NCBI GenBank assembly: GCA_027008775.1
Contig: JALVDV010000006.1
Span: 13,551 to 77,550 of the forward strand
From: Candidatus Moraniibacteriota bacterium
GTDB lineage: Bacteria > Patescibacteriota > Minisyncoccia > Moranbacterales > DUUL01
Direction: 5' to 3'
DNA length: 64,000 nucleotides
The notes under the pieces were generated by a model. The model was not told the DNA's origin. It searched no databases and saw only the letters and a program-made list of their open reading frames with translations. Positions 5,743 to 53,898 of the stretch are shown piece by piece; the stretch's first letter is position 1; each line of letters opens with the position of its first letter. Both the position numbers and the translations under genes were made by a program.

Positions 5743-5814
5743 GCCGAGGTAGCTCAGTGGTAGAGCAAAGGACTGAAAATCCTTGTGTCGGGAGTTCAAT
5801 TCTCCCCCTCGGCA
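5743..5814 (+). tRNA. tRNA-Phe (GAA); 3' CCA not encoded
   Basis: Acceptor GCCGAGG/CCTCGGC, anticodon stem-loop AAGGA-CTGAAAA-TCCTT, T-loop GTTCAATTC, discriminator A. Confidence 0.85.
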
Positions 5815-5929
5815 CAGCGTGGGGCAAAGTAGGCCTGCCCAATTTTCCCGGAAACAATGAAGGTTGTTTTTTAAGCGGAGTTGAGTTAGGAAATGTTTGG
5901 AAAGGAAAGTTTGTGGGAAAACTGGGCAG

Positions 5930-6001
5930 GCGAGAGTGGCTCAGTGGTAGAGCGTCTCCTTGCCAAGGAGAAGGTCGCGGGTTCGATTCCCGTCTCTCGC
6001 T
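5930..6001 (+). tRNA. tRNA-Gly (GCC); 3' CCA not encoded
   Basis: Acceptor GCGAGAG/CTCTCGC, anticodon stem-loop CTCC-TTGCCAA-GGAG, T-loop GGTTCGATTCC. Confidence 0.85.
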
Positions 6002-6006
6002 CAAAA

Positions 6007-6039
6007 AAAGGCGATTTTAAAGTCGCCTTTTATTTTTTG
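6007..6039 (+). terminator. rho-independent terminator after the tRNA cluster
   Basis: aaaggcga-ttttaaag-tcgccttt hairpin followed by tattttttg. Confidence 0.6.
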
Positions 6040-6062
6040 ACTGAGGTCATAAAAGGTTTATA

Positions 6063-9802: not shown

Positions 9803-10000
9803 TAATTTGTGTTAGTATTAACGGGCCATCTTGAGGGATGGTGATGTTTTTTGTAATAATTAACCGGTTTGTTGAGAATTAGTAGGAAGTGGAAAAATGA
9901 GTTTGTTTTTATGTATTGCCGGTCGCTTGACTGATTTTCCGGTAAACGGGAAAGCGAACTTATTTTTCTGTTTTCTACTTCTCAACAAATCAAGAAAAAA

Positions 10001-22416: not shown

Positions 22417-25400
22417 TTGGAAATGAAAAAGAAAAGGAAATATTTGAATAATCTTGTTTTAAAACCGATAACATTTTTACTGGTTGGTTTTTTGCTGGCA
22501 AATCTTTTTCTTGATGTAGTTTTGGCGCAGACTCTGGTAAGAGAGGTCGGTGATAATTTGGCTGAAAACTGGACTACAGCTGAAGAAAGAATTCCGCAAA
22601 ACAATTCTTCGGTAGTTAGCGGGACGAACAGTATTGTGCAACTTTTAGGAGAAATAATGGCGCCTGTCTATCAGTTGGCTACTCCCGGTTCCAATTTAAC
22701 TTATGATATTTATCGCTATTTAATGAAACACACGGAAACAGAACTGGGAATTGATAAAGATTTTTTTCGCAGATTAAAAAGAAAGGTTGATGCGCCGACG
22801 GTGGATATCGTTTTTGCGCCAACCAATCCCAAAGAAGGACAACCGGTGACGGCTTTTGCGGTGCCAAGTGGTTTCAGAAACAGCAAAGATAGATTGTATT
22901 TTACCTGGTACTTGGTTCATAAGGGACAAAACGATGTTCAGGCCGGTCGGGATGAAGCAATGGGGATGGTGGCGCGAGGCGGATATGACAGAGATTTGTT
23001 TGGGAAGCCAAATGGTGATGATGGCAACAGGGATGCTTACAACGCTTCTTTTGGTGGCAATGATGGCGTGGGCGCTAAAAGCGGAAAAGCTATCGATCAA
23101 CATTGTGAGGGATGTGATTGTTTGCATAATATGACGATGTTTGCCGGTGAAGTGGAGAGAGGTTGTTTTGATGATAAAGGGCAATTGTTGTATTCCAATT
23201 TAGAGGAGTATAGGGAAGCTGTTAAGGATGTTGGTCAGGAAAAGGCTGATTGGGGGAAGGGGGCCGTTAACTCTGATTGGATAACGCGTTGTTACCGACA
23301 TAATTTTGGCAGAAAAAGCGGAGATGGAGAGGAGTATTCCGGTCGGGATTTAATAATTAAATGTCAACATGCCTTTGATTCTTCTTTGGGTGGCAGTGAT
23401 AATAGTTTTGGTCGGGCGGATGAAGATAAGTGGGTGACCAATCCGGCTAATCCGGATACCGATGGAGACGGAGTGGTGGATGAAGCGGATTTGGTTGGTC
23501 TGGGCCAGGATGAATTCACTTGGATTTACCACAAAGGTGACAGGGTGACGGTGGCGGTGGAGGGGACTTCCAATATTATGATTAATGAGGGTGCTACAAA
23601 TAGGCTGAGGTATAAAAATAAGCATCATACCAGCGGTGATTTTGATTTATCACCGACGGCTTCACCGGAGGAATGGTATAAAGAAGCCAGAAATTATTGT
23701 GAAACACGAAAGAATGATTGTTTGGCCAGCACTGGTGATTCAATGAATTATGTTCCGGTTAGTAGCAGGTTGCCGGACGATAGTGAGTGTGTCAGACAGT
23801 ATGCTGATTGTATGAAGGACGTTTGGCAACATCAATGGTCCGGTAATGATGAAGATTCTTTTGGTGATTTGACCGGTTATTATAAAATTATGTGGGCGGC
23901 GCCGGGGATTTGCAGTCAAGAAAATAAGGATGAAGCGGAAAATGATTGGTGCGACAGTCGTGATGACTTTGGTTTTCAATATTTGAAACTCTATGATCCG
24001 GTGGAGAGAGGAAAACAGTTGATGAAAGTTTCAGTCAATATTTCGCCAAAAAACCCGCAATTTTTTGAACCGACGGAAGATGATTGTAATATGTTGGGAG
24101 GGGTTTGTTATATGTTCGGCGATGGTACGGATATGATTTTGGCCAGCGCGGATATAGTTGGCGATGACAATGTTGATCCTGATTATTTATACTATAAATG
24201 GAGTGTTTGGCGTTGTGATAAAAACGATTTTACCAATTGTGAAGATGTAACCAGTTTTGTTTATCCGGTTAGTCAAAAAGAGGGAATAGGAGTAAGGGAT
24301 TTTGGCTTTTATCCGATGAATCCGGTAAGGAGTCTTTTTAAAGAGGGGGAAAATGAAGCTTTATTGAAGGTGGGGGTGGTGGTAAAAAAACATAAAAATG
24401 CAACGATGAGTTCTCCGGGGGTGAGTGGAGTTTATGAACAACAAATTGGAAGCAATCAGACGGGTGTTTCAGCCGATCAGTATGTGGAAAAATACGCTTA
24501 CACGGCCAGTCAGTTAATAAAAGTTCATAAAAATGATTTAGCTATCAAACTGTACACTGCGGTTCCGGATGGTAGTGGCGGTTGGAAGAAGGGTCGGGAA
24601 ATTTGTAACAGAACCGGCTCTCTTTACAAGAAGGTTTGTCCGGTTTTCCCTTACCAAGTTTTAATGGCGGAGTTGGACACGAGAAATGCAAATGTTGACG
24701 GTGGTATTGTTTGGAAAATTAATGGCAAGAAGATTAAACCTAATTATTTGGGTGATATAAACACGGAAAATAATTCGCCCAGAGTTTTCTTTCCGGTAAC
24801 GGGAGCGGAAAATGAACTGGGTTTAATTACAGCCATAGCGAAACGAGGTAATGATTCTGAAAATGACAATCTTTCGGTGACAGAACGTATTTTTAGTATT
24901 CGTAATCCATTGGCGGTTATTACCGACAAAGGACAATTAACCAGGCGTTCTTTGACAAAAGCTTTTGTCGGTTCCGAGAAAGCCAGAACTTTTCAGGGGT
25001 ATCAGCTTTGGTGGATTCTGGGATATCCGTCTAAAGAGTGGGCCACCACTCAAGATAGTTCTGCGGACGGTTTTCAAACGACAGTAGATATCCCAATAAG
25101 AGTGATTCCTGATTACTTAAGAACAAAGGAAGATGGTACAACCTTAAAAACCAGTGTTTATCTGAATGGATACTATGTGGGGATGGTTTCCAATGATATG
25201 GATAACGAAAATGCTAACGGAGAGGGTGGTGCGAGTGGTAATGGTGCTGAAGGGAACAACACAGACACCACCAATGGCGAGAGTAGTTCCGGTAACCGGG
25301 AAAATGGAACCGCCTGGTTACTGAAAAATGTTATGTTTACCCGCGTGAGGGAAGGTGATGTAAATACTCTAAAGTTAAAGACTTTATTAAGCTTTGATGA

Positions 25401-41397: not shown

Positions 41398-42678
41398 ATG
41401 GGTGGAGCGGTAAATTATTATCAAGATTTTTATCATATTGAAGCGGAGAAATTTACATCGCCGGTTAAGGAGTCGCCGCTTTGGTTGTCTCTATTAAAAG
41501 CGACCGGTATATTTTTTCTGGTTACTTTCATTGTTTTCGGGATAACCAATTATCAATTTATTCAAGCGCAGATTGCCGATTGGCGTAACGGTCGGGGTTA
41601 TGTTGATTTAGTTAGAGATAGTGACGGTGACAGTTTGCCGGATTGGTGGGAGAAAAAATATGGCTTGAATGTTGCTGATAATAAAGATGCTTTAAATGAT
41701 AATGACCATGATGGCGCCAATAATTTATTGGAATTTCAGTTTAATGTTGATCCAAATAATCCGGATACCGACGGTGACGGATTTTCCGATGGGGAGGAAA
41801 TATCTCGCGGTTACAATCCGAATGGTGAAGGACGCTTGGATAGTGATGGCGATGGAATGTTTGATTGGTGGGAGATGCAAAATGGTTTGGATCGAAATGA
41901 TTTGAATGATGCTAAATTAGACAGTGATAATGATGGGCTAACTAATCTGGAGGAATTTAAATACAAAGCCGATCCTAACAATCCGGATACGGATGGAGAC
42001 GGTGTTAGTGATGGCCAAGAAGTAAAAGAAGGTTCTAATCCTCATGGTAAGGGGCCATTGCAGGTTTTTGATGTGACTAAAAATGATGCTGACGGCGACG
42101 GTTTGGATTTGGCTCACGAAAAATTGTTTGGCACCGATCCCAATAATCCGGACACTGATGGTGATGGTTTTTCTGACTACCGGGAAATTTCGCGAGGTTA
42201 TGATCCTACCGGGGGAAAGTTTTTACAAGCCACAATCAACATTCCGGCTATTGGGGTAAGCGCGCCGATTATTTGGTCGCATAATGTCAAAGAGAAAGAT
42301 ATTATGAATGATTTAGAGAAGGGTCTTGTGCACTTTGCCGGAACGCCGGTGCCGGGTTTCAGAGGAAATTGTTATATAACCGGTCATAGCAGTTACTACA
42401 CTTGGAGTAAAAGTTCTTTTAAGGATATTTTGAAAAATATAGATAAGTTAAAAGTTGGGGATGATATTATTTTCAAATACCATTTTAATAATGGTAAAAA
42501 TGTGGATATCGTTTACTCTGTTATTCAAGAAGGGAGGGTGGTTTTACCTAACGACTTGTCGCTGTTTGCCGACAGTGAAAATTATGACTTAACCTTGGCA
42601 ACTTGTTGGCCGGTGGGGACTAATTTGAAAAGGATGATGGTGAAGGCGCGCTTGAAAAGTCCTGTTTTTAAAGATTGA
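41398..42678 (+). CDS. sortase-domain protein fused to thrombospondin type-3 Ca-binding repeats
   Basis: The C-terminal sortase fold has the catalytic triad context ITGHS ... LTLATCWP ... KRMMVKARL. The N-terminus has a TM helix plus three tandem DPNNPDTDGDG[FV]SD repeats. Confidence 0.7.
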   Translation: MGGAVNYYQDFYHIEAEKFTSPVKESPLWLSLLKATGIFFLVTFIVFGITNYQFIQAQIADWRNGRGYVDLVRDSDGDSLPDWWEKKYGLNVADNKDALNDNDHDGANNLLEFQFNVDPNNPDTDGDGFSDGEEISRGYNPNGEGRLDSDGDGMFDWWEMQNGLDRNDLNDAKLDSDNDGLTNLEEFKYKADPNNPDTDGDGVSDGQEVKEGSNPHGKGPLQVFDVTKNDADGDGLDLAHEKLFGTDPNNPDTDGDGFSDYREISRGYDPTGGKFLQATINIPAIGVSAPIIWSHNVKEKDIMNDLEKGLVHFAGTPVPGFRGNCYITGHSSYYTWSKSSFKDILKNIDKLKVGDDIIFKYHFNNGKNVDIVYSVIQEGRVVLPNDLSLFADSENYDLTLATCWPVGTNLKRMMVKARLKSPVFKD

Positions 42679-43777: not shown

Positions 43778-44800
43778 ATGGTAAAAATTAATAACAATAG
43801 CGAATTAAGGCATGATGTAGTAACCGGTGATTGGGTGGTGATAGCTAAAAAAAGAAGAGAGAGACCGAAAAGTCATCAAATGAATAAGCCGGCTTGGCCA
43901 AAAGAAGAGATCCCCGGTCCGGAGAGTTGTCCTTTCTGTCACCCGGAGAAAAGTGGGCAAGAAAAGGACGTTTTGATTTATGAGGATCAACAGGGCGAGT
44001 GGACAACCAGGGTTTTTCCCAATAAATATCCAGCTTTTAAACCTCTGAAGAACAATGAAAGAGTTAGACATCAACAAATTGGTCCTTATTTTTTGATGGA
44101 TGGGGTGGGTTACCACGAACTGATTGTAACTAGAGATCATTATAAACAAATGGCTGATCTGGATGAAATACAAATAGCAGAAGTTTTGGATGCTTATCAA
44201 TCAAGGTATTTGGATTTGATGAACAGAAAATTTGTTCGCTATATAGAAATTTTTCACAACTACGGGCGAGAGGCCGGCGGTTCTGTTTTTCATCCCCACT
44301 CCCAATTGATGGCTATTCCGGTTGTTTCTCCATATATTAATTTGGAATTAGAAGGAGCAGAAGGTTATGAAAGACAAACGGGAGATTGTATTTATTGCAC
44401 GGTCTTGGATTTTGAGTTGAAGGATAGGAGTAGGATTGTTTACGAAAATGAAAAGTTTGTGGCTTTCTGTCCTTTTGCTTCCAGGCGAGCTTATGAAGTC
44501 TGGGTAATGCCAAAGGAGCACAACCCTTATTTTGAACGGATGACCGATGAAGATAAAATGGCGGCAGCGGAAGTTTTGAAGCAGGCTTTGCGAAGAATAA
44601 AATTGTTGTTAAACGATGTGGCATATAATTTTTATTTACACACTTCACCCTGTGACGGTCGGGATTACCATTTCTTTCACTGGCATTTTGAAATTTTACC
44701 AAAAACTTCCACTTGGGCCGGGTTTGAATTATCTACCGGCATTGAGATTAATGCTGTTTCTCCGGAACAGGCGGCAGAGGAGTTGAGGGGGATTGCTTAG
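43778..44800 (+). CDS. galT: galactose-1-phosphate uridylyltransferase (HIT superfamily)
   Basis: Zn site CPFCHPE is present. The active site reads FHPHSQLMAIP (HxHxQ). A second half-domain follows. Confidence 0.8.
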   Translation: MVKINNNSELRHDVVTGDWVVIAKKRRERPKSHQMNKPAWPKEEIPGPESCPFCHPEKSGQEKDVLIYEDQQGEWTTRVFPNKYPAFKPLKNNERVRHQQIGPYFLMDGVGYHELIVTRDHYKQMADLDEIQIAEVLDAYQSRYLDLMNRKFVRYIEIFHNYGREAGGSVFHPHSQLMAIPVVSPYINLELEGAEGYERQTGDCIYCTVLDFELKDRSRIVYENEKFVAFCPFASRRAYEVWVMPKEHNPYFERMTDEDKMAAAEVLKQALRRIKLLLNDVAYNFYLHTSPCDGRDYHFFHWHFEILPKTSTWAGFELSTGIEINAVSPEQAAEELRGIA

Positions 44801-44927
44801 TTGTCACTTTGTTAAATCACTTTGTTGGAAAATTTGCTTAGAATTTTTTGTGGTAAAGAGTTGTGTTTACTTGACAAGGCGTTGGTTTTGCGTCAATATT
44901 TATGACAAAAGTAGAGAGGAGGAGAAA

Positions 44928-45026
44928 ATGAAAAAAACAACGTTTTTCTTCATTTTTTTATTTCCGTTTTTGTATTTTTTTTGGAAATTTTTCAGCTTTT
45001 GTTCTTCGCATCTCTGTTTACATTAA
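44928..45026 (+). CDS. Phe-rich 32-aa hydrophobic peptide
   Basis: The peptide is MKKTTFFFIFLFPFLYFFWKFFSFCSSHLCLH, preceded by a strong GAGGAGGAG SD 6 nt upstream. The track's long upstream start (44793) overlaps galT and lacks an SD. Confidence 0.4.
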   Translation: MKKTTFFFIFLFPFLYFFWKFFSFCSSHLCLH

Positions 45027-45051
45027 AGATTAAAGTTAGACGGACAGAGAG

Positions 45052-45080
45052 AGGCGGTTTTATTGAAGCCGCCTTTTTTA
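45052..45080 (+). terminator. rho-independent terminator after the Phe-rich small ORF
   Basis: aggcgg...ccgcct stem with an 11-nt loop, followed by tttttt. Confidence 0.4.
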
Positions 45081-45211
45081 ATAGGCAATTTTTGCTTGAC
45101 TCTTTTGTCTTATTGTGACAGACTGTATTATCAATAATTTTAATTTGTTTTGGTGGATTAATTAGGGTTATTGAAGTTGTTTGAAAAAATAATTTTGAAG
45201 GAGGTTTTACT

Positions 45212-45550
45212 ATGTTTTGTACTGTAACTCTTTTTTTGGTGAAGATGGCTGTTGTTTTGATTGTGGCTTTCTTTTATTTGAGTGCGGGGGAGATAATCAG
45301 GGACTTTTTATTAAGAGGTGGTTTTGTCACTATCCCTCGTAATGGTAGGGCTAGAGAAATTGCTACCTTAGCTCTTGAACTGACTTGGCCGGCTCATCTT
45401 GTTGTCGGTTGCTTGATTGTCCTCTTGTTGTTGGCTATTGCAGTTATTGCAATCGCCATGCTCTTTCTTGTTATTGTGGCGATTGCAGTTTGGAGAACAA
45501 TGATTTTGGTTCTCCAGACGTTTGAAATTTTAATAGGAAAATTTGTCTAA
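45212..45550 (+). CDS. hypothetical small polytopic membrane protein (112 aa)
   Basis: GAAGGAGG SD 7 nt upstream. Three hydrophobic helices. A strong terminator follows. Confidence 0.45.
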   Translation: MFCTVTLFLVKMAVVLIVAFFYLSAGEIIRDFLLRGGFVTIPRNGRAREIATLALELTWPAHLVVGCLIVLLLLAIAVIAIAMLFLVIVAIAVWRTMILVLQTFEILIGKFV

Positions 45551-45565
45551 ACATAGGCAAGTTTG

Positions 45566-45591
45566 AAGGGCCTTGCGGGGCCCTTTTTTTG
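45566..45591. terminator. rho-independent terminator (bidirectional)
   Basis: agggcc-ttgcgg-ggccc followed by ttttttt, with an A-rich stretch on the other side. Confidence 0.6.
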
Positions 45592-45611
45592 TAAAGGTGG
45601 TCAAGAGTTGG

Positions 45612-45881
45612 TTATTTTTTAAACAAAGTTTTAATCTCCCCGAGGAATATTTTGTAATTTAACAATAAGTGAAATATTACCAACACAGACATAATAAAAC
45701 CGAAGATGGTGTGAATGTTTTCCAACTGCCATTTGCTGAGGCCCAAAAAAGTCCAAGATGTTTCTCTGGCTATTCTTCCGGAAGGAGCGTGATGTAGTCC
45801 GATTCCGGTAAGAGTAACGATGATAAACATAATTAGCAGCAAAGAGGACAAAATGGCTCTGATTTTAATTATGCTTTTCAT
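45612..45881 (-). CDS. hypothetical 2-TM small membrane protein (89 aa, His-rich loop)
   Basis: ORF with two hydrophobic helices. It is the last gene of the minus-strand run. Confidence 0.35.
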   Translation of the reverse strand: MKSIIKIRAILSSLLLIMFIIVTLTGIGLHHAPSGRIARETSWTFLGLSKWQLENIHTIFGFIMSVLVIFHLLLNYKIFLGEIKTLFKK

Positions 45882-45970
45882 AGTTCTTTGTTAAATTTTT
45901 TGGAGTGAATTTATTAAAGCGTATTCCATTTATTAAATAATAGTTCCAGTGGTTCAACAATGTCTTCAAT

Positions 45971-46010
45971 TTTATTATATTCTATTATAGTTTATTATAT
46001 TCTATTATAG
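45971..46010. repeat. perfect tandem duplication (2 x 20 bp, tttattatattctattatag)
   Basis: Exact direct repeat. One copy overlaps the stop and the last 5 codons of ORF 45985..46341. Confidence 0.9.
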
Positions 46011-46341
46011 CATCAGAAATTCCTTTGGTAGTATCTTTAATTTTTGTTCCTTTTTTCATAATGGTAATTATTTTTTTATTTTGAGCAAAGGCAATACCTG
46101 CTTCAATAGCTCTGCCGGTTGGTTTGTGTGTCATATCTATCAAAAGGACATCAGATTTTGCAATTTCTGACTTGGCTTTTTCCATTAATTCTTTAGGATT
46201 ATCAAATATTTTTTGATAATTTTCAATATCTCTGATAAAACAAAAATCTTTAAAACCGCTTTTATTTACTAGAGAGCAAAGATGTTCTATTTCATTTTTG
46301 TTTTTACCTTCTTTATAAGAAGCAGTGATAAAAATTTTCAT
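45985..46341 (-). CDS. nucleoside 2-deoxyribosyltransferase-like / DNPH1-Rcl-like protein
   Basis: 118 aa. The MKIFITASY...VLLIDMT...GRAIEAGIAFAQNKKII pattern matches the PF05014-type Rossmann-like fold. Confidence 0.45.
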   Translation of the reverse strand: MKIFITASYKEGKNKNEIEHLCSLVNKSGFKDFCFIRDIENYQKIFDNPKELMEKAKSEIAKSDVLLIDMTHKPTGRAIEAGIAFAQNKKIITIMKKGTKIKDTTKGISDAIIEYNKL

Positions 46342-46353
46342 AATAAGAGGGGT

Positions 46354-46954
46354 TTAATGGTTAACAAAGGGGTTCTTCATATTAAATTTGATCAGAGGGG
46401 TGTGATTGTTAATTTTTTCTGTTGGAATTTTATATTTTTGGCTATGGATGAAGTCAATAGAATTAAATACCGCATTTTGCCAGTTTAGTCCCAATTTTTT
46501 GGCTACCTTTTTTACCTCATTTTCATTTTTTCCTTCTATTTCCAAAATTGGTTCTAAAAACGGCCAAATATCAATCATCAATTTTACTCCTTCTATTTCC
46601 CAGATCTCTCTTTTTGTTTCTTGAAATGATTTTTTGCGAGCACCGATTGTTTTCAAAAAAGTTGGGGCGTTTTCGTAACTGTTTACGATGAGTTCAACTT
46701 CCTTTTGGCTGTCAATTGATTTGTTGTTGCCGGTGATTTTTAAACTCATGGTTATCTTATCATTTTCGTCACGAACCCTTAACCAGGCCCCCTTTAACTT
46801 CTTGTCCTTCGGGCAGATAGAAGTTGGTTCTTTTCTGTTTGAACATTGGTTTTAACAACCTTCCTCCCAATTTTTTGATTTGTTTTCTGGTTTTATTAAT
46901 ATCAATATTACAAAAAGTTGCTTCGTATTCAGTATTTAAGTTGTTCAATTTCAT
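46354..46954 (-). CDS. CYTH-domain protein (CyaB/thiamine-triphosphatase-like), frameshifted in a homopolymer
   Basis: The upstream ORF reads TEYEATF...KQKRTNFYLPEGQEVKG. It continues in the +1 frame as AWLRVRDENDKITMSLKITG...EIWEIEGVKLMIDIWPFLEPILEIEG, a CYTH beta-barrel pattern. The frame switches in the C5 run at 46788-46792. Confidence 0.55.
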
Positions 46955-47034
46955 AAAAATAAATTGGGTTTGATTATCAAATAATGAGATTTAGATTATT
47001 TTTAAAAGGGGGAAACTTTTGTTTCCCCGAATTT

Positions 47035-47316
47035 TTATTTTTTTCTTGCTCGTTGGTGAGCCTTCTCTCGTCGGCGGAGAAGGTTGTTGATATATTTTCC
47101 TTGCTCTTTTTTACTCATGACGGAGAGGGCTTCTCCGTCAAAGTTTAAAGAGCGGTGAAGTGGATCCTTTCTGGTCCACAAGCGATACCACCAAAGTAAA
47201 ACTCCCCCATTCCAAGCTCTTTGTTTGACTTGAATGAGGCGAGAGTGGGTCAGATAGAGCTGTAATTTTAGCCAATGCGTAACTATGATCACGATTAACT
47301 TAATTATTTTTGCCAT
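47035..47316 (-). CDS. hypothetical basic protein (93 aa)
   Basis: ORF with an AAGGAGG SD. A 35-bp repeat lies upstream (see findings). Confidence 0.3.
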   Translation of the reverse strand: MAKIIKLIVIIVTHWLKLQLYLTHSRLIQVKQRAWNGGVLLWWYRLWTRKDPLHRSLNFDGEALSVMSKKEQGKYINNLLRRREKAHQRARKK

Positions 47317-47481
47317 TGTACTACCTCCTTTTTATTTTTTCTTTCAAGGAACTTCTTTGTTTTTTGTAGTGGATAGGCTTCATCTTGTTGGCCTTCTTAT
47401 TGTATCAGTTGGTTATTAGATGAACAAGTTTGTAATTTAATAAAAATTTAACATTTGCAGAGACAGGAACATTTAGTTGTT

Positions 47482-48018
47482 TTAAAGTAAACCTAAATAA
47501 TCCAATCCCAGATAACCAACTTCAATATCCGTATTTTGTCCACTGCGAAGCAAATTTTTAAATTCATCCATATTTAACAAGACAACTTCTATGAATTCAT
47601 TCTCGTCAAGATTTTGTTTGGACACCAATTCGCAGTCTGTAATGACGACGCAACTGCGTTGCATGGTGGAATAAGCGCAATCAAAAGCGGTGGTAACCAG
47701 TTTTGCTTTTCCTTGATAGCCGGTTTCTTCCAACAATTCTCTGTTGCCCGCCTTCTCAGGGGTTTCGTTTTTGTCAATGTAACCACCGGGAAGTTCCAGT
47801 AAAATTTTATTTGGACCGGGTCTGAATTGTTTGGTAAGAATCACTTGTTTGTTTTTAGTCAAAGCGAGTATTCCAACAGCCGGACCTTCTTTTTTAAGAT
47901 AAAAGTCACTTTTTTCTCCATTTGGCATCTCATAAATCACTTTTTCAATCTTACGACTATATTTTTGCCACTCTATTTCGCGAGAAATTTCTTTCCATGA
48001 TTTAATGTTTTTTGTCAT
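47482..48018 (-). CDS. NUDIX hydrolase (ADP-ribose pyrophosphatase-like)
   Basis: The Nudix box reads GGYIDKNETPEKAGNRELLEETGY (GX5EX7REUXEEXGU). The likely start is ATG at 48018; the track's longer ORF extends to 48087. Confidence 0.75.
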   Translation of the reverse strand: MTKNIKSWKEISREIEWQKYSRKIEKVIYEMPNGEKSDFYLKKEGPAVGILALTKNKQVILTKQFRPGPNKILLELPGGYIDKNETPEKAGNRELLEETGYQGKAKLVTTAFDCAYSTMQRSCVVITDCELVSKQNLDENEFIEVVLLNMDEFKNLLRSGQNTDIEVGYLGLDYLGLL

Positions 48019-48151
48019 AAAAATGATTAGGGATGAAAATTTGAACGGAGAAAAATTGGTACCCCTTAAGGATCTAAATGATACCAATTTTTTGTAGTCA
48101 GTAGTGAGGTAACCAAAAATCTTTCTGCTATACTATTTTTTGGCAATTGAG

Positions 48152-48514
48152 TTATATTATCTCAACCGTATGTCCCGATTGTTCAAGTTTCTTTTTTATC
48201 AACGATATTAGTTCTCCCTTTTTTTGTTCTATTGCCTCAATTTTTTTAATTCGTTCTTGATCATTATTATCTTTTTTTGCCATCTGTTTGGCTTCTGTTA
48301 TTTCTTTGTCAAATTCACTACCATTAATTTTTAAAACTCCATTATCCTCAGTTACCATATTGCTTGGCCAAATAAACTCACCAGAGAGTTCACCATCTTC
48401 ATTAATAAACTTACCTAATAGTCGATTTATATCTTCATCGTAATCAAGTTTATTATAAATTGCTTGAATATCTACTCTTTGTTGTGGTGTTTTGCTTTCA
48501 AATTTTTCCGGCAT
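48152..48514 (-). CDS. hypothetical acidic protein (120 aa)
   Basis: ORF only. Confidence 0.35.
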   Translation of the reverse strand: MPEKFESKTPQQRVDIQAIYNKLDYDEDINRLLGKFINEDGELSGEFIWPSNMVTEDNGVLKINGSEFDKEITEAKQMAKKDNNDQERIKKIEAIEQKKGELISLIKKKLEQSGHTVEII

Positions 48515-48696
48515 AGTTTTTTATTGGTTAATTATTAAACATTTAAATTATATCACAATGTTTCATGATGTGTGATGTTTGGCAGATCTATGAAACCGCG
48601 AAACAGTAGCTTTATCAAATATAGGTGAAAAGGGAAAGGGGTGTAACGATGAATGAGATTACATATTCTGTGTTAGGTGGCAGTTGTGCTGATTTT

Positions 48697-49353
48697 TTAT
48701 TTTTTTCTCAAAACTATTACATCCTGAAAACAAGCAGGTGCTCCCATTCCAAGTGGACTCTCGCTGAGCACGATTAGTTCAATCTGATTGTTAACGGTTG
48801 AATCTAGGATGCTTTGCTTTTCTGATTGGCTGATTAATCCTAGCCCAAGATTGATTACAGGTTGGTTGAGTTCATTTTTGCTATGAACTGTGTTGCCAAT
48901 ATCAACCAGATTAACCATTGCACGAATTAACTCTTTGGAGCCACCCGTTATAGTAAAACTATCGCATTTTTTAGTTTCGCCCCAAGCGCTTCTCTCAACA
49001 GGCGAATAATAACCTTTAATAATTGCGATGCCCAGTGGATAATTACTATTATCTCTGTTAAATAAACATTCATTTATGGTGCAGAGATTGTTGGTAAGAT
49101 TGTATGTTGTATTATTGACTGGTGTTTTAGTTTTGGAGATATTGTTTTCGTTTTGGATCTGAGTCAGTTTATTTTGGAGCAAGACAATTCGTTTTTGCAA
49201 TTTTTGTTCCGAAGTTTTTAGCTTAGAGTTTTGCCAAAAGTAAATACCTCCACCTACTGTTAAAGCGGTTACAATGGCACAAACAACAATTGCCCAGGCA
49301 GTTTTAAGACTTTGAGCTTGTTTTATTGATTGTGAGGTGGTTTGTTTTTCCAT
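48697..49353 (-). CDS. hypothetical membrane-anchored protein with a coiled coil (218 aa)
   Basis: N-terminal TM helix, then a heptad-like region (LKTSEQKLQKRIVLLQNKLTQIQNENN). Confidence 0.35.
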   Translation of the reverse strand: MEKQTTSQSIKQAQSLKTAWAIVVCAIVTALTVGGGIYFWQNSKLKTSEQKLQKRIVLLQNKLTQIQNENNISKTKTPVNNTTYNLTNNLCTINECLFNRDNSNYPLGIAIIKGYYSPVERSAWGETKKCDSFTITGGSKELIRAMVNLVDIGNTVHSKNELNQPVINLGLGLISQSEKQSILDSTVNNQIELIVLSESPLGMGAPACFQDVIVLRKK

Positions 49354-49402
49354 AATTTTGTGAGTTAGCCAGTTTGATTATGTTTTAAATTAAGAAAAAG
49401 TC

Positions 49403-49665
49403 AGCACAATTTTGCACAACGGGTGCGAGTATGAGAAGTTTCGCCGATCTTCTTTTTATTTTTTCTTTCAAGGAACTTTTTGTTATTTACTTTCTGTCAA
49501 CGTATCCGAGTATGCGAAGTTCGCTTTTCGGATTTATTTGATATTATTTGGTTTAACTGATGACTATTTTAACTCACTTTCGCTTAAATTACCACTAAAT
49601 GGAGAAAAGCGAATTTGGGAAAAAGGCGAGCCGAGCCTTTTTCCGCATACTCGATGTTAGGCGAG
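49403..49665. repeat. GC-rich structured repeat unit (family copy 1) ending in GTTAGGC
   Basis: Shares aattttgcRcaacgNNtgcgWgtatgagaagtNNcgcc and ccgcatactSSRtgttaggcga with the copy at 50367..50468. It also contains an internal copy of gagtatgMgaagttcgc. Confidence 0.6.
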
Positions 49666-49742
49666 GGTGAGCGGAACGGAGTGGAGCGAAAGCGCAGCGT
49701 CCCCGTAGCGTTTTCTTTCAAATTTTTTTTGCGGTCGTGGGC

Positions 49743-49771
49743 TTGACAGATAAGTTATTATCTGCTATACT
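49743..49771 (+). promoter_or_regulatory. sigma70-type promoter for the SemiSWEET gene
   Basis: TTGACA (49743-49748), a 17-nt spacer, then TATACT (49766-49771). It lies about 100 nt upstream of the ATG. Confidence 0.5.
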
Positions 49772-49873
49772 AAAATGTCAATAGTTGGGAAATCGTCTTT
49801 TTTAATAACCAAAAGAGAGGTTTCTCACTATTGTGAGGATCTGCTCTTTTAAAACTGAAAAGGAGAAAATCAG

Positions 49874-50140
49874 ATGGAAAATCTATTTGGTTCTCTTACT
49901 CTAGTCCTGGCAGTTACTATGGTAGTAATTGCCTTGCCGAGTCAAATCCGCAAAAACTACCGAGAGAGAAAATGTGGTCTCAGTTTCCTGATGGTACTGC
50001 TGCCACTCGGCGTGTACATATCACGAACTTGCTATGCAATACTGATTAAGTCGTGGTATATAGTAGTGCCGGACTTTCTCGGCGTGATTTTCTCTGCCGT
50101 TCTATTGGCTCAATTCCTTTATTATCGGAACAAGCCATGA
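49874..50140 (+). CDS. SemiSWEET / PQ-loop family sugar transporter (88 aa, 3 TM)
   Basis: The PQ motif LPSQIRKNYRERKCGLSF is present. The gene has three helices, an AAGGAGAAAA SD, and its own promoter and terminator. Confidence 0.55.
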   Translation: MENLFGSLTLVLAVTMVVIALPSQIRKNYRERKCGLSFLMVLLPLGVYISRTCYAILIKSWYIVVPDFLGVIFSAVLLAQFLYYRNKP

Positions 50141-50157
50141 AGATCCGGGTTTAACTC

Positions 50158-50190
50158 AGAGCGTTGACTTAACAGTTGACGCTCTTTTTC
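50158..50190 (+). terminator. rho-independent terminator after the SemiSWEET gene
   Basis: 11-bp stem agagcgttgac/gttgacgctct with two G-U pairs and a 6-nt loop, then ttttt. Confidence 0.55.
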
Positions 50191-50216
50191 ATACGAGCAA
50201 AAAATAATTTGAAAGA

Positions 50217-50468
50217 AAATGTCGCCTAATGGGCGGCGTTTATGCGATCGTGGCGGGATGATGACAAGTCATCAGACCGACATGTCGCACAATCGTCAGT
50301 TGTGCGAAGCTTCGCTGAGCATAGCTGGCGTGTAACGCCGCCCATTGTGCAAAATGAGCGAAGTGAAATTTTGCGCAACGTTTGCGTGTATGAGAAGTCC
50401 CGCCGTGGCGGGATTTGGGCGGAGGCTTTTGTAAAAAGCCGTAGCCGCATACTGCGTGTTAGGCGATG
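50217..50468. repeat. GC-rich structured repeat unit (family copy 2), bounded by GCCTAAT and GTTAGGC
   Basis: GCCTAAT sits at 50224-50230 and GTTAGGC at 50458-50464. A perfect 13-bp inverted repeat aatgggcggcgtt/aacgccgcccatt lies at 50228-50240 and 50334-50346. The palindrome GCGAAGCTTCGC lies at 50303-50314. The subsegment 50367..50468 aligns to copy 1. Confidence 0.6.
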
Positions 50469-50482
50469 TAATTTTCAAAATA

Positions 50483-51013
50483 TTATCTTTGAAATTGCCA
50501 CGTTTCTTTACCATCTTTTATAATCAATTTGCGTTTGACAAAATTCGGTTGTTTGTTATTTCTCTCATCAGGCCCAATCAAAATTTCAAAAATTCCGTTT
50601 TTTGTATCTAGGGTCAAAACTGTACGTGTGTTGTTTGATGATTGGTGCTCGTGAATTCGTGCTGTGTCTTTAAATTTCTGAATTATTTTTCGTGCATGCT
50701 CTAGATTTTCTTCTATTGCTTTATCAAGCTTTTCATCATAATCATTTGCATGAGCACCACCTGTAACTATAATATCAGAAATTTTTCCGCCAGTTTTTCT
50801 TAGGAATTCTTGAAATTTTTCTTCGAGAGACTCATCCCGTATCATGTTGTGTATCATTGCGCCAATCTTAGAATTTTGGTCATAAAGAGCTATGCAGACA
50901 CACATATATAATTCTGTACTGATCAAACGCTCTCCGTTTTCGGCAATTTCGAACCTAAAAGAATCTACTTCAATATCTTCTGGTTGTGGTGTTAACTCAA
51001 ATCTGTTGTTCAT
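50483..51013 (-). CDS. hypothetical protein, CheD-like (chemoreceptor glutamine deamidase fold) - weak
   Basis: CVCIALYDQNSKIGAMIHNM resembles the CheD Cys/His core (GSCVAVCLYDP..KVGGMAH). It is an orphan with no che genes nearby. The gene is flanked by GTTAGGC-type heptamers. Confidence 0.35.
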   Translation of the reverse strand: MNNRFELTPQPEDIEVDSFRFEIAENGERLISTELYMCVCIALYDQNSKIGAMIHNMIRDESLEEKFQEFLRKTGGKISDIIVTGGAHANDYDEKLDKAIEENLEHARKIIQKFKDTARIHEHQSSNNTRTVLTLDTKNGIFEILIGPDERNNKQPNFVKRKLIIKDGKETWQFQR

Positions 51014-51024
51014 AGAATTTTGAA

Positions 51025-51056
51025 AATTATGTCGCCTAACTCGTTTTTATGCGAAT
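51025..51056. repeat. partial copy of the repeat family (tatgtcGCCTAACtcgtttttatgcga)
   Basis: Near-identical to 50217-50247 apart from an 8-nt indel. GCCTAAC lies at 51034-51040, which is 20 nt from the CheD-like start on the opposite strand. Confidence 0.55.
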
Positions 51057-51627
51057 AATGTTTCGTGATAAAAACTAAATATTGACAAAAAGCGAATAAT
51101 TGACGGGATGTAAGTGGGTTTAACCTACTCTTTTTTGTCTAACTTTATTGTACATGAAAAGTCTTATTTTAAAAAGTTTTATTTTACAAGCGAAAAATTT
51201 GTTGAAGGTGCAATTATTCTGCAAAGATGATATTCTCTGAAAACAGCAGAAATTTATTTGTTGTATGTTGAGCAACACTAAAAAGTATTAAAAGTCCGTT
51301 TTAACCCTGCCAAAATGGAACTTGACTTCCATTTTAACCCTGCTATTTTGGCAGTGGAGCGGGAATAAAAATAATTTTTTTCAGATTCCATTGTTGGCAA
51401 AAGAGATTTTTTGTAGGTAGAATTGTGAGTGGAAGTAGTTTTGTTGTTTTTTTTGCTAAGTTAATAAAATTTTCAAAGAGTTTTGTTTTAGTACTTCATT
51501 TTTAATAGATAATATTTGCTAATTGATGAATTTAAACTATTATGATACCCTACTGCTGTAGGGTTGTACTGTTATTTTGCAAAATGTTGGTGTTTGAGGT
51601 GTGTAAAATATAATTTAATTGTAAATA

Positions 51628-51921
51628 ATGTCAAATATGAAAAAGTATAAACGAAGTCAGTTTTATCAAATGGAAAGAACCGTGAAAGGGTTTTCAAATC
51701 ACAGAAGAATTGAGATAATGTTTCTATTAGATAAGAGACCGGAATTATCCGTGAATGAAATTTGCAGGGAATTAAAAATAAATTTTAATACGGGATCTGA
51801 TCACATTAGAAAACTTGCTCAGTCCGGAATAGTTATGAAAAGGGCTGACAATAAAACGGTCAGACACGCCTTAACCGAAAAAGGCAAGGCAATACTGTCA
51901 TTTTGCAAAACATTGGTATAA
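51628..51921 (+). CDS. ArsR/SmtB-family HTH transcriptional regulator
   Basis: RRIEIMFLLDKRPELSVNEICRELKINFNTGSDHIRKLAQSGIV is a wHTH of the ArsR type. Confidence 0.7.
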   Translation: MSNMKKYKRSQFYQMERTVKGFSNHRRIEIMFLLDKRPELSVNEICRELKINFNTGSDHIRKLAQSGIVMKRADNKTVRHALTEKGKAILSFCKTLV

Positions 51922-51987
51922 CACTCGGTAAATATTGTAGGGTGTGAATTGGAAAAAGTGAATAATTTGTTATTTTAAAGATAAACA

Positions 51988-53898
51988 ATGGGAAACAATA
52001 ATAGTTTAAATAACATTCGTAATTTTTGTATTATTGCGCATATTGATCATGGGAAGTCCACTTTGTCGGACCGGCTTTTGGAAGTGACGGGAACGGTGGA
52101 GAAGCGAAAAATGAAGGAACAACTTTTGGATACGATGGATTTGGAGAGAGAGCGGGGAATTACCATCAAGTTACAACCGGTGCAAATGATATATGGTTAT
52201 CAGTCAGCAGTTAACAGTTCACAGAAAAAAGGTGACTTAAAAACTCCTTTAATTCCTCTTCAAAAAAAGGGAGAGTTAAAGGGCTATGTCCTTAATTTGA
52301 TTGACACTCCAGGGCATGTGGATTTTGCCTATGAAGTTTCACGGTCATTGGCGGCGGTGGAAGGGGCTATTTTGCTGGTGGATGCCACTCAAGGGGTACA
52401 AGCGCAAACTTTAACCAATCTTTACGCCGCTTTGGAACAGGATTTGGAAATTATTCCGGTGATTAACAAGATTGATTTGCCCAATGCTGATGTGGAGAAA
52501 GTGAAAAAGGAAATCGTGCATATTTTGGGGTGCGAGCCGGAAGAAATTTTAGCGGTGAGCGGAAAAACCGGGGAAGGAGTGGAAGAGTTGCTACAAGCGA
52601 TTGTGGAAAGAATACCGGCGCCAAAAAAACAGTTGATTGATTATGAAACAGGAAAGCCGGAGCCTTTGCGGGCTTTGATTTTTGACAGTGTTTATGATGA
52701 GTACAAAGGGGTGTTGGCTTATGTGCGAGTGGTTGATGGAGAAATCAAAAAGGGAGATGAAATAAAAATGATGATGACAAAAGGGGAGAGCTCGGTGGTT
52801 GAGCTGGGGCATTTTAAGCCGGAATATGTGGCGACCGACAAACTGTCGGCCGGAGATATCGGTTACATTGCCACCGGTTTTAAGAGTGTGAAGGATTGCA
52901 AGGTGGGAGACACGGTCACTTTACAATCGCAGGCCGGCGCAGATGAAAAAATTGAACCATTGCCCGGTTATGAGGAGGTACAACCGATGGTTTACGCCAG
53001 TTTTTATCCGGCGGATGGTTCCGATTATAATGTAATGCGAGAGGCGCTGGATAAATTAACTTTAAATGATGGCGCTTTTAGCTTTGAACCGGAAAGTAAT
53101 CAAGCCTTGGGCAGGGGTTTTCGTTGCGGATTTTTGGGGTTATTGCACTTGGAAATTGTGCAAGCGAGATTGGATAGAGAGTTTGGAATTAAGCCGGTGA
53201 TAACCACTCCCAGTGTGGTTTATCGTTTGCACAAAAAAAATACCGATGAGATTATTGACATTTATTCGCCCAGTGAACTGCCTGATGGTTCGCAGATTGC
53301 TTTCATTGAGGAGCCTTATGTGAAACTGGAAATTGTAACACCGACTGAATATTTGGGAAAAGTGATGGAATTGGTCGGAACTATCAGGGCTGATTATAAA
53401 AATACTGACTATATTGATAATGAAAGGGTGCAGTTGGTTTTTGAAGCGCCTTTGATGGAGGTGATTGTTGATTTTCATGATCAATTAAAAAGTGTCTCTT
53501 CCGGCTACGCTTCAATGAGTTATGAACTGATTGATTATCGGAGTAGTGATTTGGTGAAGGTTGATATTTTGGTAGCCGGAGAAAAAGTGGAAGCCTTTTC
53601 TCGGATTGTGCCGAAAGAAGAGGCTTACAAGCAAGGTAAAGCAATAGTGGAAAAGTTGAAAGAAATTTTACCCCGGCAAAATTTTGCGGTGGCTATCCAA
53701 GCGGTAATTGGCGCCAAAGTGATTGCGCGGGCGACTTTAAGCGCTTTTCGCAAGGATGTTACCGCCAAACTTTATGGGGGCGATGTGACACGCAAGAGGA
53801 AGTTGCTGGAGAAGCAAAAGAAGGGCAAGAAGAGAATGATGAAAACAGGCAAAGTGGAAATTCCCAGTGAGGCCTTTTTACAGGTGTTGAGAAAGTAG
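51988..53898 (+). CDS. lepA: elongation factor 4 (LepA), with an approximately 30-aa insertion in the G domain
   Basis: IIAHIDHGKSTLSDRLL (G1), DTPGH, and NKID are present. The LepA-specific C-terminal domain follows. Confidence 0.9.
   Translation: MGNNNSLNNIRNFCIIAHIDHGKSTLSDRLLEVTGTVEKRKMKEQLLDTMDLERERGITIKLQPVQMIYGYQSAVNSSQKKGDLKTPLIPLQKKGELKGYVLNLIDTPGHVDFAYEVSRSLAAVEGAILLVDATQGVQAQTLTNLYAALEQDLEIIPVINKIDLPNADVEKVKKEIVHILGCEPEEILAVSGKTGEGVEELLQAIVERIPAPKKQLIDYETGKPEPLRALIFDSVYDEYKGVLAYVRVVDGEIKKGDEIKMMMTKGESSVVELGHFKPEYVATDKLSAGDIGYIATGFKSVKDCKVGDTVTLQSQAGADEKIEPLPGYEEVQPMVYASFYPADGSDYNVMREALDKLTLNDGAFSFEPESNQALGRGFRCGFLGLLHLEIVQARLDREFGIKPVITTPSVVYRLHKKNTDEIIDIYSPSELPDGSQIAFIEEPYVKLEIVTPTEYLGKVMELVGTIRADYKNTDYIDNERVQLVFEAPLMEVIVDFHDQLKSVSSGYASMSYELIDYRSSDLVKVDILVAGEKVEAFSRIVPKEEAYKQGKAIVEKLKEILPRQNFAVAIQAVIGAKVIARATLSAFRKDVTAKLYGGDVTRKRKLLEKQKKGKKRMMKTGKVEIPSEAFLQVLRK

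Follow-up and report, generated by a model that had tools for sequence, protein, structure and literature searches.

Folding repeats, a dif-like site and a probable row of small mobile gene cassettes beside lepA in a Moraniibacteriota genome

Gene content and composition of the islet

The window analysed here, a 64-kb stretch of DNA from a Moraniibacteriota (candidate phyla radiation) genome, contains between galT and lepA an islet of small genes that is set apart from the rest of the window by gene strand as well as by GC skew (0.09-0.10 in the islet vs 0.21-0.38 in the window's other 4-kb bins). Every open reading frame that an earlier, sequence-only reading had listed for the islet is present. 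The minus strand encodes, in order of coordinate, an 89-aa protein with two transmembrane segments that matches DUF4405 (45612-45881, E=2e-15), a 118-aa protein resembling nucleoside deoxyribosyltransferases (NDT-like; 45985-46341), a CYTH pseudogene (46354-46954), a 93-aa basic protein (47035-47316, pI 11.3), a NUDIX hydrolase (47482-48018, PF00293, E=1e-15), an acidic protein of 120 aa (48152-48514, pI 4.9), a 218-aa protein with a single N-terminal transmembrane segment (48697-49353), and ORF176 (50483-51013). The last three we regard as cassette cargo, ORF176 being that of cassette 1. A SemiSWEET gene (49874-50140; PQ-loop, 25.5 bits, exceeding the cutoff) and an ArsR-family regulator (51628-51921, HTH_5) lie on the plus strand.

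The earlier calls of NUDIX, SemiSWEET, ArsR and a two-transmembrane peptide, here identified as DUF4405, are all confirmed by profile matches, and the acidic and basic characters assigned to the 120-aa and 93-aa proteins are borne out. Three other calls need correction. The CYTH gene is split by a frameshift within a G-run into 46354-46749 and 46769-46954, and Pfam is passed by the repaired reading alone (33.9 bits). The NDT-like match is weak and falls below threshold (23.4 bits vs 28.8), and the CheD-like assignment of ORF176 comes down to a short N-terminal match (31.8 bits vs a cutoff of 251). The ORF176 family is tiny, with 7 clusters at >=73% identity, and its AlphaFold model is poor (pLDDT 51).

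The earlier proposal that the islet is accessory rather than core is supported. A comparison with 80 other species shows no islet gene, galT or ArsR within 10 kb of lepA, with the exception of one locus, L064, which carries a SemiSWEET gene and a homologue of the 218-aa protein (53% identity); the SemiSWEET proteins are 80% identical, vs 66.6% for LepA. The GC-rich repeats described in the sequence-only reading are real: positions 50224-50471 and 49640-49742 reach 53.6% and 54.4% GC, vs 35.3% in the islet overall and 37.8% in the window. Those repeats had been handled as a side feature; we hold them to be the key to the locus.

A family of folding elements in one orientation

The GC-rich repeats are part of a conserved element of 100-210 nt that folds as a three-way junction. 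A covariance model of this element (CM R1) detects 40 copies across 13 loci, every copy on the lepA strand, although these counts are not independent because the approximately ten genomes that carry the element are mutually related. In the window its matches lie exclusively inside the islet, with none in the other 58 kb, and the best reach E-values of 1e-18 to 1e-19, far from chance. The proposed fold is upheld by covariation: 87.2% of cells are paired, vs 64.1% after shuffling and 29-48% when the pairing is slid, and compensatory changes affect both sides of 28 of 32 pairs, a level reached by none of 500 shuffles. One G.U pair is kept in 35 of the 40 copies, and the motifs ATTTGGG and GAACC are conserved and unpaired. 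Of 17 elements, 14 fold better on the lepA-sense strand, and the advantage is 10-30 kcal/mol in most copies. At its base the fold rebuilds a dif-like core, composed of an ..AAC/GTT.. arm, a small asymmetric loop and a 12-bp stem with TATGAGA/TCTCATA; the cassette core runs to about 11 nt (TTAKGYGAAAT). The terminal 7-mers beyond AAC/GTT are neither consistently complementary nor of the form RYYYAAC/GTTRRRY, and the arms of some elements are mismatched (e.g. L030, 18415). No Rfam family matched the elements.

Each element comes directly after a small ORF encoded on the opposite strand. In most copies that ORF ends 1-40 nt past the 3' end of the element and the next ORF starts 15-140 nt ahead of its 5' end, and the distance from one element to another is about 250-1550 bp. 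In L030 the 33 nt between core and ATG place the start too close for a promoter. Cassette ORFs are usually promoterless and lie on the strand opposite lepA, and a few are reversed and carry a promoter of their own. The cargo is nearly all different from array to array; a HicAB toxin-antitoxin pair is among it, as are units with no ORF. An IS110-family transposase is also present in the L064 array.

Element E1, the site of the ORF176 cassette (50367-50471, plus strand; 94.4 bits, E 1.6e-19), ends 12 nt from the ORF176 stop codon. It adjoins an ORF-less, GC-rich hairpin cassette (50224-50366, plus strand) whose distal core on the cassette strand reads TCGCATAA-ACGCCGCCCA-TTAGGCGA; together the two fold at -131.8 kcal/mol on the plus strand (z = -8.8) and -96.4 on the minus strand. 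Next lies the reversed SemiSWEET cassette (49670-50223, plus strand), composed of a conserved GC-rich leader module, the promoter that the sequence-only reading had predicted (TTGACA-17-TATACT, 49743-49771), a 5' leader of about 100 nt, and a terminator (50158-50185). The same leader/promoter module (…GAGCGCAGCGT…GTGGGCTTGACA) drives a different plus-strand gene in L070, and GTTAGGCGAAAT stands ahead of the 218-aa homologue in the L064 array.

Element E2 (49489-49669, plus strand; 88.4 bits, E 4.6e-18) has compensatory arms, TCCGAG-TATGCG with CGCATA-CTCGAT. It is followed by a plus-strand remnant (49408-49478; nhmmer E 4e-8), in which an orphan 5' half-element (49408-49446) accompanies a 27-nt leader box (49452-49478). 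Element E3 (48547-48685, plus strand) is degenerate (29.5 bits, E 0.0013), with the stop of the 218-aa ORF 12 nt away and the next ORF start 33 nt away. Element E4 (47984-48099, plus strand) is weak and truncated at about 48028, matching model positions 28-129 only (20.9 bits, E 0.16); a core of 73 nt shares 74-82% identity with full elements of L070, L015 and L011.

The CM search found no element with the distal genes at 45612-48018 (NUDIX, 93-aa, CYTH, NDT-like and DUF4405), so that the element is undetectable for five of the nine minus-strand genes of the islet. These genes resemble the array in gene strand, low GC and low skew, and a box at 47328-47354, ahead of the 93-aa gene, is identical at 27 of 27 positions to the leader box of the remnant. 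We take them as probable old cassettes with decayed sites.

Strain junctions, head site and recombinase

Comparison with related genomes revealed presence/absence variation in this interval, including between strains that are 96-99% identical. The window and the strains L010 and L002, 96-99% identical on both sides of the islet, have ORF176 and its element in common and then diverge exactly at the distal xTTA, with the junctions CCA|TTAGGCG, CCA|TTATATT and TCC|TTAAACC, respectively. This point is the distal core of the ORF-less hairpin cassette. In L002 a single unrelated 121-aa gene replaces the SemiSWEET, 218-aa and 120-aa genes; homology with the window resumes at 48028, a second breakpoint that is a truncation inside E4 with no clean core junction. 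At least three unrelated genomic contexts contain the ORF176 cassette; ORF176 is followed by the element every time, and homology stops at GTTAGGC.

At the lepA-proximal end of the array, 14 nt upstream of the ORF176 ATG, lies a head site with a dif/attI-like core (51028-51056; cassette strand ATTCGCATAAA-AACGAG-TTAGGCGACAT). A metagenome contig, L136, ends within this core at 51037, at most 2 nt from the predicted crossover. Homologous sites in L069 (9050-9080), L070 (3816-3842) and L021 (145-175) lie between the first cassette and a recombinase gene, about 100 nt upstream of the latter. Against the E. coli dif sequence, the arms match at 8/10 and 7/11 positions in the window, where the right arm is degraded; the corresponding figures for L069 and L070 are 8/10 and 10/11.

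The gene beside these sites encodes a 270-aa XerA/IntI-like tyrosine recombinase and lies directly upstream of lepA, divergent from the cassettes. It is intact in L070, L069 and L021, and remnants persist in L015, L041 and L064. In the window the ArsR gene, co-oriented with lepA, occupies this position, and tblastn at E<=1 found neither gene nor remnant anywhere in the 64 kb. The recombinases score 202-222 bits against the TIGR02249 'integron integrase' model and 218-235 bits against the XerA model NF040815, whose cutoff is passed by those of L069 and L021. Among known structures they match XerA 4A8E (6.8e-46) and IntI4 2A3V (2e-45); the alignment with archaeal XerA runs from end to end, and IntI4 and TIGR02249 match in two stretches, the IntI-specific domain of about 35 residues being missing. 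This domain has been tied to attC handling in studies of integron integrases (PMC4889954, PMC4792948).

Interpretation and relation to known systems

We interpret the islet as a probable row of small, mobile gene cassettes that varies between strains. On sequence grounds, we favour, with some reservation, the reading that it is an integron-like, Xer-type cassette array from whose locus the recombinase gene is absent. A recombinase would bring a cassette site, folded from a single strand, together with either the head site or a second cassette site; one strand would be exchanged at x|TTA, and the product may then be resolved by replication. The window array would be serviced in trans, if at all.

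It is unlikely that the recombinase is instead the ordinary chromosome-dimer-resolving Xer of this lineage, the head site a true dif, and the cassettes small integrative elements that exploit Xer (IMEX, like CTX phage), piling up there with no dedicated capture platform. In single-recombinase Xer systems such as XerS and XerH, dif adjoins the gene; the head sites of L069 and L070 have the bacterial dif layout and agree with E. coli dif at 18 of 21 arm positions; and both the full-length alignment with archaeal XerA and the XerA cutoff passed in L069 and L021 agree with this reading. GC skew, however, is positive on both flanks in the window, L069, L041 and L015, and since the flanking genes are co-oriented and the sign of the skew does not change, the site is not at the replication terminus. 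Moreover, L015, L041, L064 and the window either carry the gene as a pseudogene or lack it, which is unexpected of an essential gene for dimer resolution unless a paralogue exists. We consider it quite improbable that the elements are structured RNAs made from the lepA-sense strand, acting as antisense regulators, insulators or processing sites for the small genes, so that the arrays would mirror regulation of one gene at a time, with strain differences arising by homologous recombination. The strongly covarying junction and the better folding of the sense strand in most copies fit this reading, and the conserved unpaired motifs and G.U pair are more typical of functional RNA, yet the Rfam search was negative, the elements are antisense to neighbouring ORFs and mostly have no detected promoter upstream, the ends of the fold form a dif-like core homologous to the recombinase-adjacent site, and the core triplet is the exact start of strain divergence.

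A further reading takes the elements for selfish palindromic repeats (MITE, REP or Correia type) gathered in a permissive intergenic hotspot and causing gene differences by homologous recombination between copies. It would account for the imperfect palindromes with common ends, the truncated or nested copies (49408-49446; 50224-50366) and the transposase in L064. This explanation is more doubtful still: all 40 copies have one orientation and form single arrays, the rest of the window has none, a loose half-site motif is not enriched over 1.3 Mb of related loci, no transposase accompanies the elements consistently, and the internal hairpins are not conserved copies but covary. Least credible is the proposal of the sequence-only reading that NUDIX, CYTH and the NDT-like gene form a module for nucleotide salvage, signalling or defence, a view that is largely refuted. 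The genes are adjacent and co-directional, and the NUDIX protein has a weak, generic match to the PADLOC candidate family PDC-S07 (E 9e-9), but PADLOC recognises no system, the CYTH gene is frameshifted in L002 as well and at a different place, the NDT-like call is sub-threshold, and the trio occurs together in no other genome or locus compared. Different, unrelated NUDIX genes form solitary cassettes in the L030 and L064 arrays. The three genes are unrelated cargo.

The cassette array that we favour belongs to a system seen so far in about ten genomes of Moraniibacteriota and related Patescibacteria, and we found no earlier description of it in the literature searched. It shares with integrons, sedentary chromosomal ones in particular, an Xer-related tyrosine recombinase that, in relatives, is divergent from the array and adjacent to a primary duplex site; cassettes in which a promoterless ORF is followed by an imperfect palindrome; uniformly oriented sites whose ORF-complementary strand folds better; AAC...GTT triplets at the base of the fold and x|TT junctions; and strain-variable content with toxin-antitoxin, ORF-less and reversed, own-promoter cassettes. 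A canonical integron it is not, since the recombinase of the relatives lacks the IntI-specific domain (I2 helix). Furthermore, its sites are longer, with a conserved three-way junction and unpaired motifs and no free variable loop, and it has a dif-like head site and the 11-nt cassette core. Clusters of attC sites that lack an integrase are known as CALINs (Cury et al. 2016, PMC4889954), and the window array, with its recombinase gene missing and the right arm of its head site degraded, resembles one of these.

The scheme proposed here is that of attC x attI recombination and of CTX-phage integration by XerCD. The CTX-phage IMEX at dif (Val et al. 2005, cited in PMC4792948) likewise uses an Xer-type recombinase with no I2 domain, a duplex dif-like partner site, and a folded single-stranded substrate, here putative, whose stem mimics duplex dif around an imperfect central region, and it permits tandem accumulation of integrated units. 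The islet differs in that its units are single-gene cassettes of 250-1550 bp rather than phage genomes, its site is away from the GC-skew terminus, the recombinase gene adjoins the array and decays along with it, and one site family is common to dozens of different cargos. The pdif modules of Acinetobacter plasmids are also small gene modules between Xer-type core sites, but those sites are duplex and alternate in orientation (PMC7399989, PMC12907356), whereas the half-sites of the islet elements covary as a hairpin and all point the same way. The arrangement as a whole is probably much like the hypothesised ancestor of integrons.

Gene content and accessory status of the islet

The gene run beside lepA differs from the rest of the window in composition and coding direction. 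Nearly all genes of the 64-kb window lie on the plus strand, and GC skew outside the islet ranges from +0.21 to +0.38, whereas the 44-52 kb interval is exceptional in its minus-strand genes, its skew of 0.09-0.10 and its GC content of 35%. The GC-rich patches seen in the sequence-only reading were confirmed by a GC profile (54% GC versus 35% for the islet), and all of the islet ORFs that it listed are present at their proposed positions. The NUDIX and ArsR calls are solid, as is that of the 2-TM peptide, which is a DUF4405 protein, and that of the SemiSWEET gene, whose own promoter and terminator were confirmed. The 120-aa acidic and 93-aa basic proteins were likewise verified, and the 218-aa protein described as coiled-coil and membrane-bound has a single TM segment. 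Other labels stood only in part. The deoxyribosyltransferase-like ORF exists, but its domain match is under threshold, and the CheD-like label of ORF176, the first cassette gene (50483-51013, minus strand), depends on a short N-terminal match; the structure prediction for this protein is poor (pLDDT 51). The CYTH gene is recognizable but frameshifted in a run of five G at 46780-46790 (AAAGGGGGCC), and passes the Pfam threshold only after repair. In the close strain L002 (GCA_026992875.1) the N-terminal part of this gene is intact and reads through the window's frameshift site, with a second break further downstream; breaks at differing places point to independent decay or homopolymer length variation.

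The claim that this interval is accessory was borne out. We searched lepA and its flanking 10 kb on either side from 80 species with 19 window proteins; the closest species representative is 78% identical in LepA, and by its LepA relatives the window belongs to Candidatus Moraniibacteriota (Parcubacteria, candidate phyla radiation). No islet gene, galT or ArsR was found near lepA in these loci, except in L064, which has a SemiSWEET 80% identical to that of the window (LepA only 66.6%) and a homologue of the 218-aa protein (53%). L002 is 99% identical to the window from lepA to 50227 and 96% identical from 48028 onward. Between these points, SemiSWEET and the 218-aa and 120-aa genes of the window are replaced in L002 by 677 bp encoding a single, unrelated 121-aa membrane protein. 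The islet is thus accessory, since its genes are missing beside lepA in other species and are substituted in L002.

Two further features of the window were recorded. A SemiSWEET 5' leader of roughly 100 nt (window 49772-49873; L064 2515-2612) is conserved across two species and includes a hairpin immediately ahead of the ribosome-binding site; it has no match in Rfam and may be a cis-regulatory RNA. Additionally, a sortase-associated surface protein and a second large protein contain thrombospondin type 3-like calcium-binding repeats, encoded by 49-nt repeated units at 41750-42185 and 23441-23489.

A covarying element and its cassette-like layout

Local repeat searches recovered two kinds of repeat: TCGCCTAA-N7-11-TATGCG units, which occur in both orientations, and a box of 39 nt present as three direct copies. 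The interval 50205-50490 folds at -131.8 kcal/mol on the plus strand (z = -8.8) versus -96.4 on the minus strand, and the window's repeat sequences were also found upstream of lepA in other species. An RNAalifold consensus of 12 copies comprises three helices, with compensatory changes in 25 of 32 pairs. A covariance model built from this alignment detected 40 copies of the element in 1.27 Mb, distributed over the window, its strains and ten further loci, with all 40 in the orientation of lepA; the carriers are about ten related genomes. The window copies, all on the plus strand, are E1 (50367-50471, 94 bits), E2 (49489-49669, 88 bits), E3 (48547-48685, 29.5 bits, E 0.0013) and the truncated E4 (47984-48099, 20.9 bits, E 0.16), and the model found no element outside the islet in the 64 kb. 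In the 40-copy alignment 87.2% of cells are paired, versus 64.1% when shuffled and 29-48% when slid, and 28 of 32 pairs are altered on both sides, a value matched by 0 of 500 shuffles; these figures lean high, given that the copies were aligned by fitting to the model and come from related genomes. The independent seed alignment of 12 copies agrees with this result, as do arm pairs checked by hand (GCGTG/CACGC, CGGTG/CACCG, AGGTG/CACCT, ACGCA/TGCGT and CCAAA/TTTGG). One G.U pair is conserved in 35 of the 40 copies. On the lepA strand the consensus reads ATTTCGCC-AYAAC-GTT-(5 variable nt + TATGAGA)-AGT-hairpin 1-ATTTGGG-hairpin 2-GAACC-(TCTCATA + 5 nt)-T-GTTAKRYGATGTAA. Within the window only three tRNAs reached an Rfam 15 gathering score, and 44800-52000 gave no match with an E-value below 1. 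A strict attC motif scan (RYYYAAC...GTTRRRY plus folding) returned no clean set, and a loose half-site pattern showed no enrichment over shuffles across 1.3 Mb.

At most element copies an opposite-strand ORF stops 1-40 nt past the 3' end, and the next ORF starts shortly before the 5' end; in the window, ORF stop codons lie 12 nt from E1 and E3. The three to four plus-strand elements of the window form a cluster in the sense of at least two co-oriented sites, each after an ORF. One locus (L030) has at least 11 ORF-element units in series, including a unit with just 33 nt from core to ATG and therefore no room for a promoter. Reverse-facing cassettes, such as the window SemiSWEET and a 192-aa gene in L070, have in common a GC-rich leader and a GTGGGCTTGACA promoter. 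The cargo is almost wholly different between arrays; it includes ORF-less units as well as genes for HicAB, a SET-domain protein, membrane proteins and several unrelated NUDIX hydrolases. No element was detectable at the five distal genes of the islet (NUDIX to DUF4405); their strand, composition, shared 27-nt leader box and absence in other species suggest that they too originated as cassettes. In L064 an IS110-family transposase gene (2880-4272) directly follows the SemiSWEET cassette, and its 5' non-coding end contains TCGCCTAAC; elements of the IS1111 group are known to target integron attC sites.

Recombinase, head site and proposed exchange at the core

No tyrosine recombinase was found in the window, and a tblastn search with an IntI1 query returned nothing there. 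In related loci, the gene for a 270-273 aa recombinase reaches the lepA start or stops just short of it (L070, L069 and L021), and recombinase fragments occupy the equivalent position in L015, L041 and L064. The protein has Phage_integrase and SAM-like domains, and scores 202-222 bits in two stretches on the TIGR02249 integron integrase model (cutoff 265) and 218-235 bits on NF040815 XerA (cutoff 220). Among PDB entries it is colinear with P. abyssi XerA (4A8E, 6.8e-46) and also matches V. cholerae IntI4 (2A3V, 2e-45), leaving IntI4 residues ~213-238 unmatched. This gap corresponds to the IntI-specific domain of integron integrases, which is some 35 residues long and located near patch III (PMC4889954).

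A head site lies ~100 nt upstream of the recombinase gene, facing the cassettes, in all three intact loci, placed like an attI between the divergent recombinase gene and the first cassette. On the cassette strand the L069 site reads GTTCGCATATA-AACGAG-TTATGTGAAAT, and the head-site arms of L069 and L070 match E. coli dif at 8/10 and 10/11 positions. The window homologue (51028-51056) lies directly ahead of ORF176, has a degraded right arm and has no recombinase gene beside it. Every element shares homology with the head site along its 3' strand, so that a folded element would rebuild a dif-like duplex, predicted to contain a small asymmetric loop with GTT opposite T.

The window and its close strains L010 and L002 have in common ORF176, E1 and a 143-nt ORF-less hairpin, past which the cassette strand reads ...CGCCGCCCA/TTAGGCGACA in the window, ...CGCCGACCA/TTATATTCAA in L010 and ...CGCCGCTCC/TTAAACCAAA in L002. 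The second breakpoint between the window and L002 (48028) falls within a truncated element and shows no clean core junction. ORF176 homologues form 7 clusters, in contexts that include lepA and ArsR (window), a tRNA between GST_N and obg (L006) and unrelated small ORFs (L011), and their similarity to the window starts upstream at GTTAGGC. ORF176-based scans gave no match in genome contigs and one locus in metagenome contigs. The metagenome contig L136 terminates within 2 nt of the head-site core, weak evidence that agrees with exchange at the core. The ORF176-family cassette of L006 (9487-10760; 173 aa) adjoins the tRNA gene and is flanked by ~90-nt direct repeats (9870-9960 and 10670-10760), with weak matches to the element model.

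On the far side of the head site, the window ArsR gene is bracketed by 25-nt direct repeats (51567-51591 and 51893-51917, 88% identical) containing a TTTTGCAAAA palindrome. A near-consensus leftward promoter, TTGACA-16-TATATT (51634-51607), overlaps the ArsR start and would read across one palindrome toward the cassettes; ArsR could control the array through this promoter. A tandem 31-nt repeat (TCCGTTTTAACCCTGCCAAAATGGAACTTGA, TCCATTTTAACCCTGCTATTTTGGCAGTGGA) occupies 51295-51358, in the 590 bp of non-coding DNA that separate head site from ArsR. In L010, ~99% identical to the window over lepA, ArsR and ORF176, lepA (5131-7554; ERZ23491057 scaffold_11346) encodes 807 aa, and its GTPase domain is interrupted by a PDDEXK_3 nuclease domain as an intein-like or mobile insertion.

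Alternative readings and relation to known systems

The array may represent a "proto-integron", a reading that we consider possible though somewhat short of probable, in which an Xer-type recombinase without an I2 domain, encoded beside its own dif-like site, captures single-gene cassettes via folded single-stranded dif mimics. In the simplest, integron-like account, folded single-stranded cassette sites would recombine with the duplex head site, with one strand exchange at x/TTA; such a folded-single-strand mechanism is common to integrons and to CTX-phage integration via XerCD (PMC4792948). The better-folding element strand is also the G-rich strand and, provided that skew identifies the leading strand, would serve as the template for lagging-strand synthesis.

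The dif-like sequence of the head site would suit a true dif exploited by cassettes as IMEX hitch-hikers. In the window, L069 and L041, however, GC skew and gene orientation show no switch across the locus, and several species have a decayed recombinase; we regard this reading as unlikely. The conserved G.U pair and unpaired motifs would fit a structured RNA, but the elements are antisense to adjacent ORFs, most copies have no upstream promoter, the element ends are homologous to the dif-like site beside the recombinase gene, and divergence between strains sets in at the core; we consider an RNA distinctly unlikely, although, if true, it would constitute a novel class of structured RNA, with 40 members that covary. 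Bridge-RNA and MITE readings prompted by the IS110 gene of L064 were rejected, as the enzyme associated with the element in relatives is a tyrosine recombinase and the window has no IS110 gene. More generally, MITE or REP-type repeats are very unlikely given the one orientation and single-locus distribution of the elements, dispersed two-orientation copies not being seen in the 64 kb. A first reading as pdif-style alternating duplex sites was dropped because covariation pairs the two half-sites inside each element and a single orientation is common to all elements. The suggestion that the NUDIX, CYTH and deoxyribosyltransferase-like genes form a nucleotide-salvage or defence module now appears extremely improbable: PADLOC 2.0 identified no system and gave matches only for NUDIX (candidate PDC-S07, 33 bits) and ORF176 (PDC-S26, 15 bits), the CYTH gene has decayed, and no other locus brings the genes together.

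An exact 15-mer scan of viral contigs gave mostly chance matches, with weakly related hairpin arrays in just seven loci from a few large phage contigs. These arrays (L097 6700-7660, from the same phage as L100, a 161-kb IMG/VR contig; L096/L112, L103, L094 and L127) lie between small same-strand genes; their hairpins are simpler, have ends as in the element (GCACATAAC-GTT...T-GTTATGTGC) and score 20-35 bits on the element model. A link to phages could account for them, as could convergence toward dif-like ends or chance; they hint at a possible delivery route.

Integron integrases are thought to derive from Xer recombinases through gain of the I2 helix, and CTX phage integration is the sole case known of Xer acting on folded single strands (PMC4792948). 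A natural system that united an Xer-like enzyme lacking I2 with a dif-like head site and hairpin-bounded promoterless cassette arrays would make the origin of integrons testable; the sequences of the recombinase (L069, L070 and L021), head site and element are now defined. It would also mean dedicated gene capture in candidate-phyla-radiation bacteria, whose small genomes are usually called streamlined and poor in such machinery, by a system that tools demanding an IntI-specific domain would overlook. The literature that we covered, which is incomplete, holds no prior description of integrons or Xer cassettes in these bacteria.

Compared with known systems, the array resembles integrons in that the better-folding strand is the complement of the cassette ORFs, as are attC bottom strands. 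Among attC features, the AAC and GTT triplets and the inner 12-bp stem are conserved and covary, and the full 7-mer consensus (RYYYAAC...GTTRRRY) is present in some copies only. The array differs from a complete integron in that the relatives' recombinase skips the IntI-specific domain and the window has no tyrosine recombinase. Its likeness to IMEX such as CTX lies in a covariation-supported hairpin that would mimic duplex dif, a 3' strand homologous to the head site, and putative single-strand use. We have filed the array as an integron-like Xer-type variant and not as an integron, because the recombinase does not score as the integrase that defines one; for this genome we class it as an orphan array resembling a CALIN. 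The proto-integron, which could have survived from an ancestral state or arisen independently in candidate-phyla-radiation bacteria, matches the intermediate between Xer/IMEX and integrons imagined by Escudero et al. (PMC4792948).
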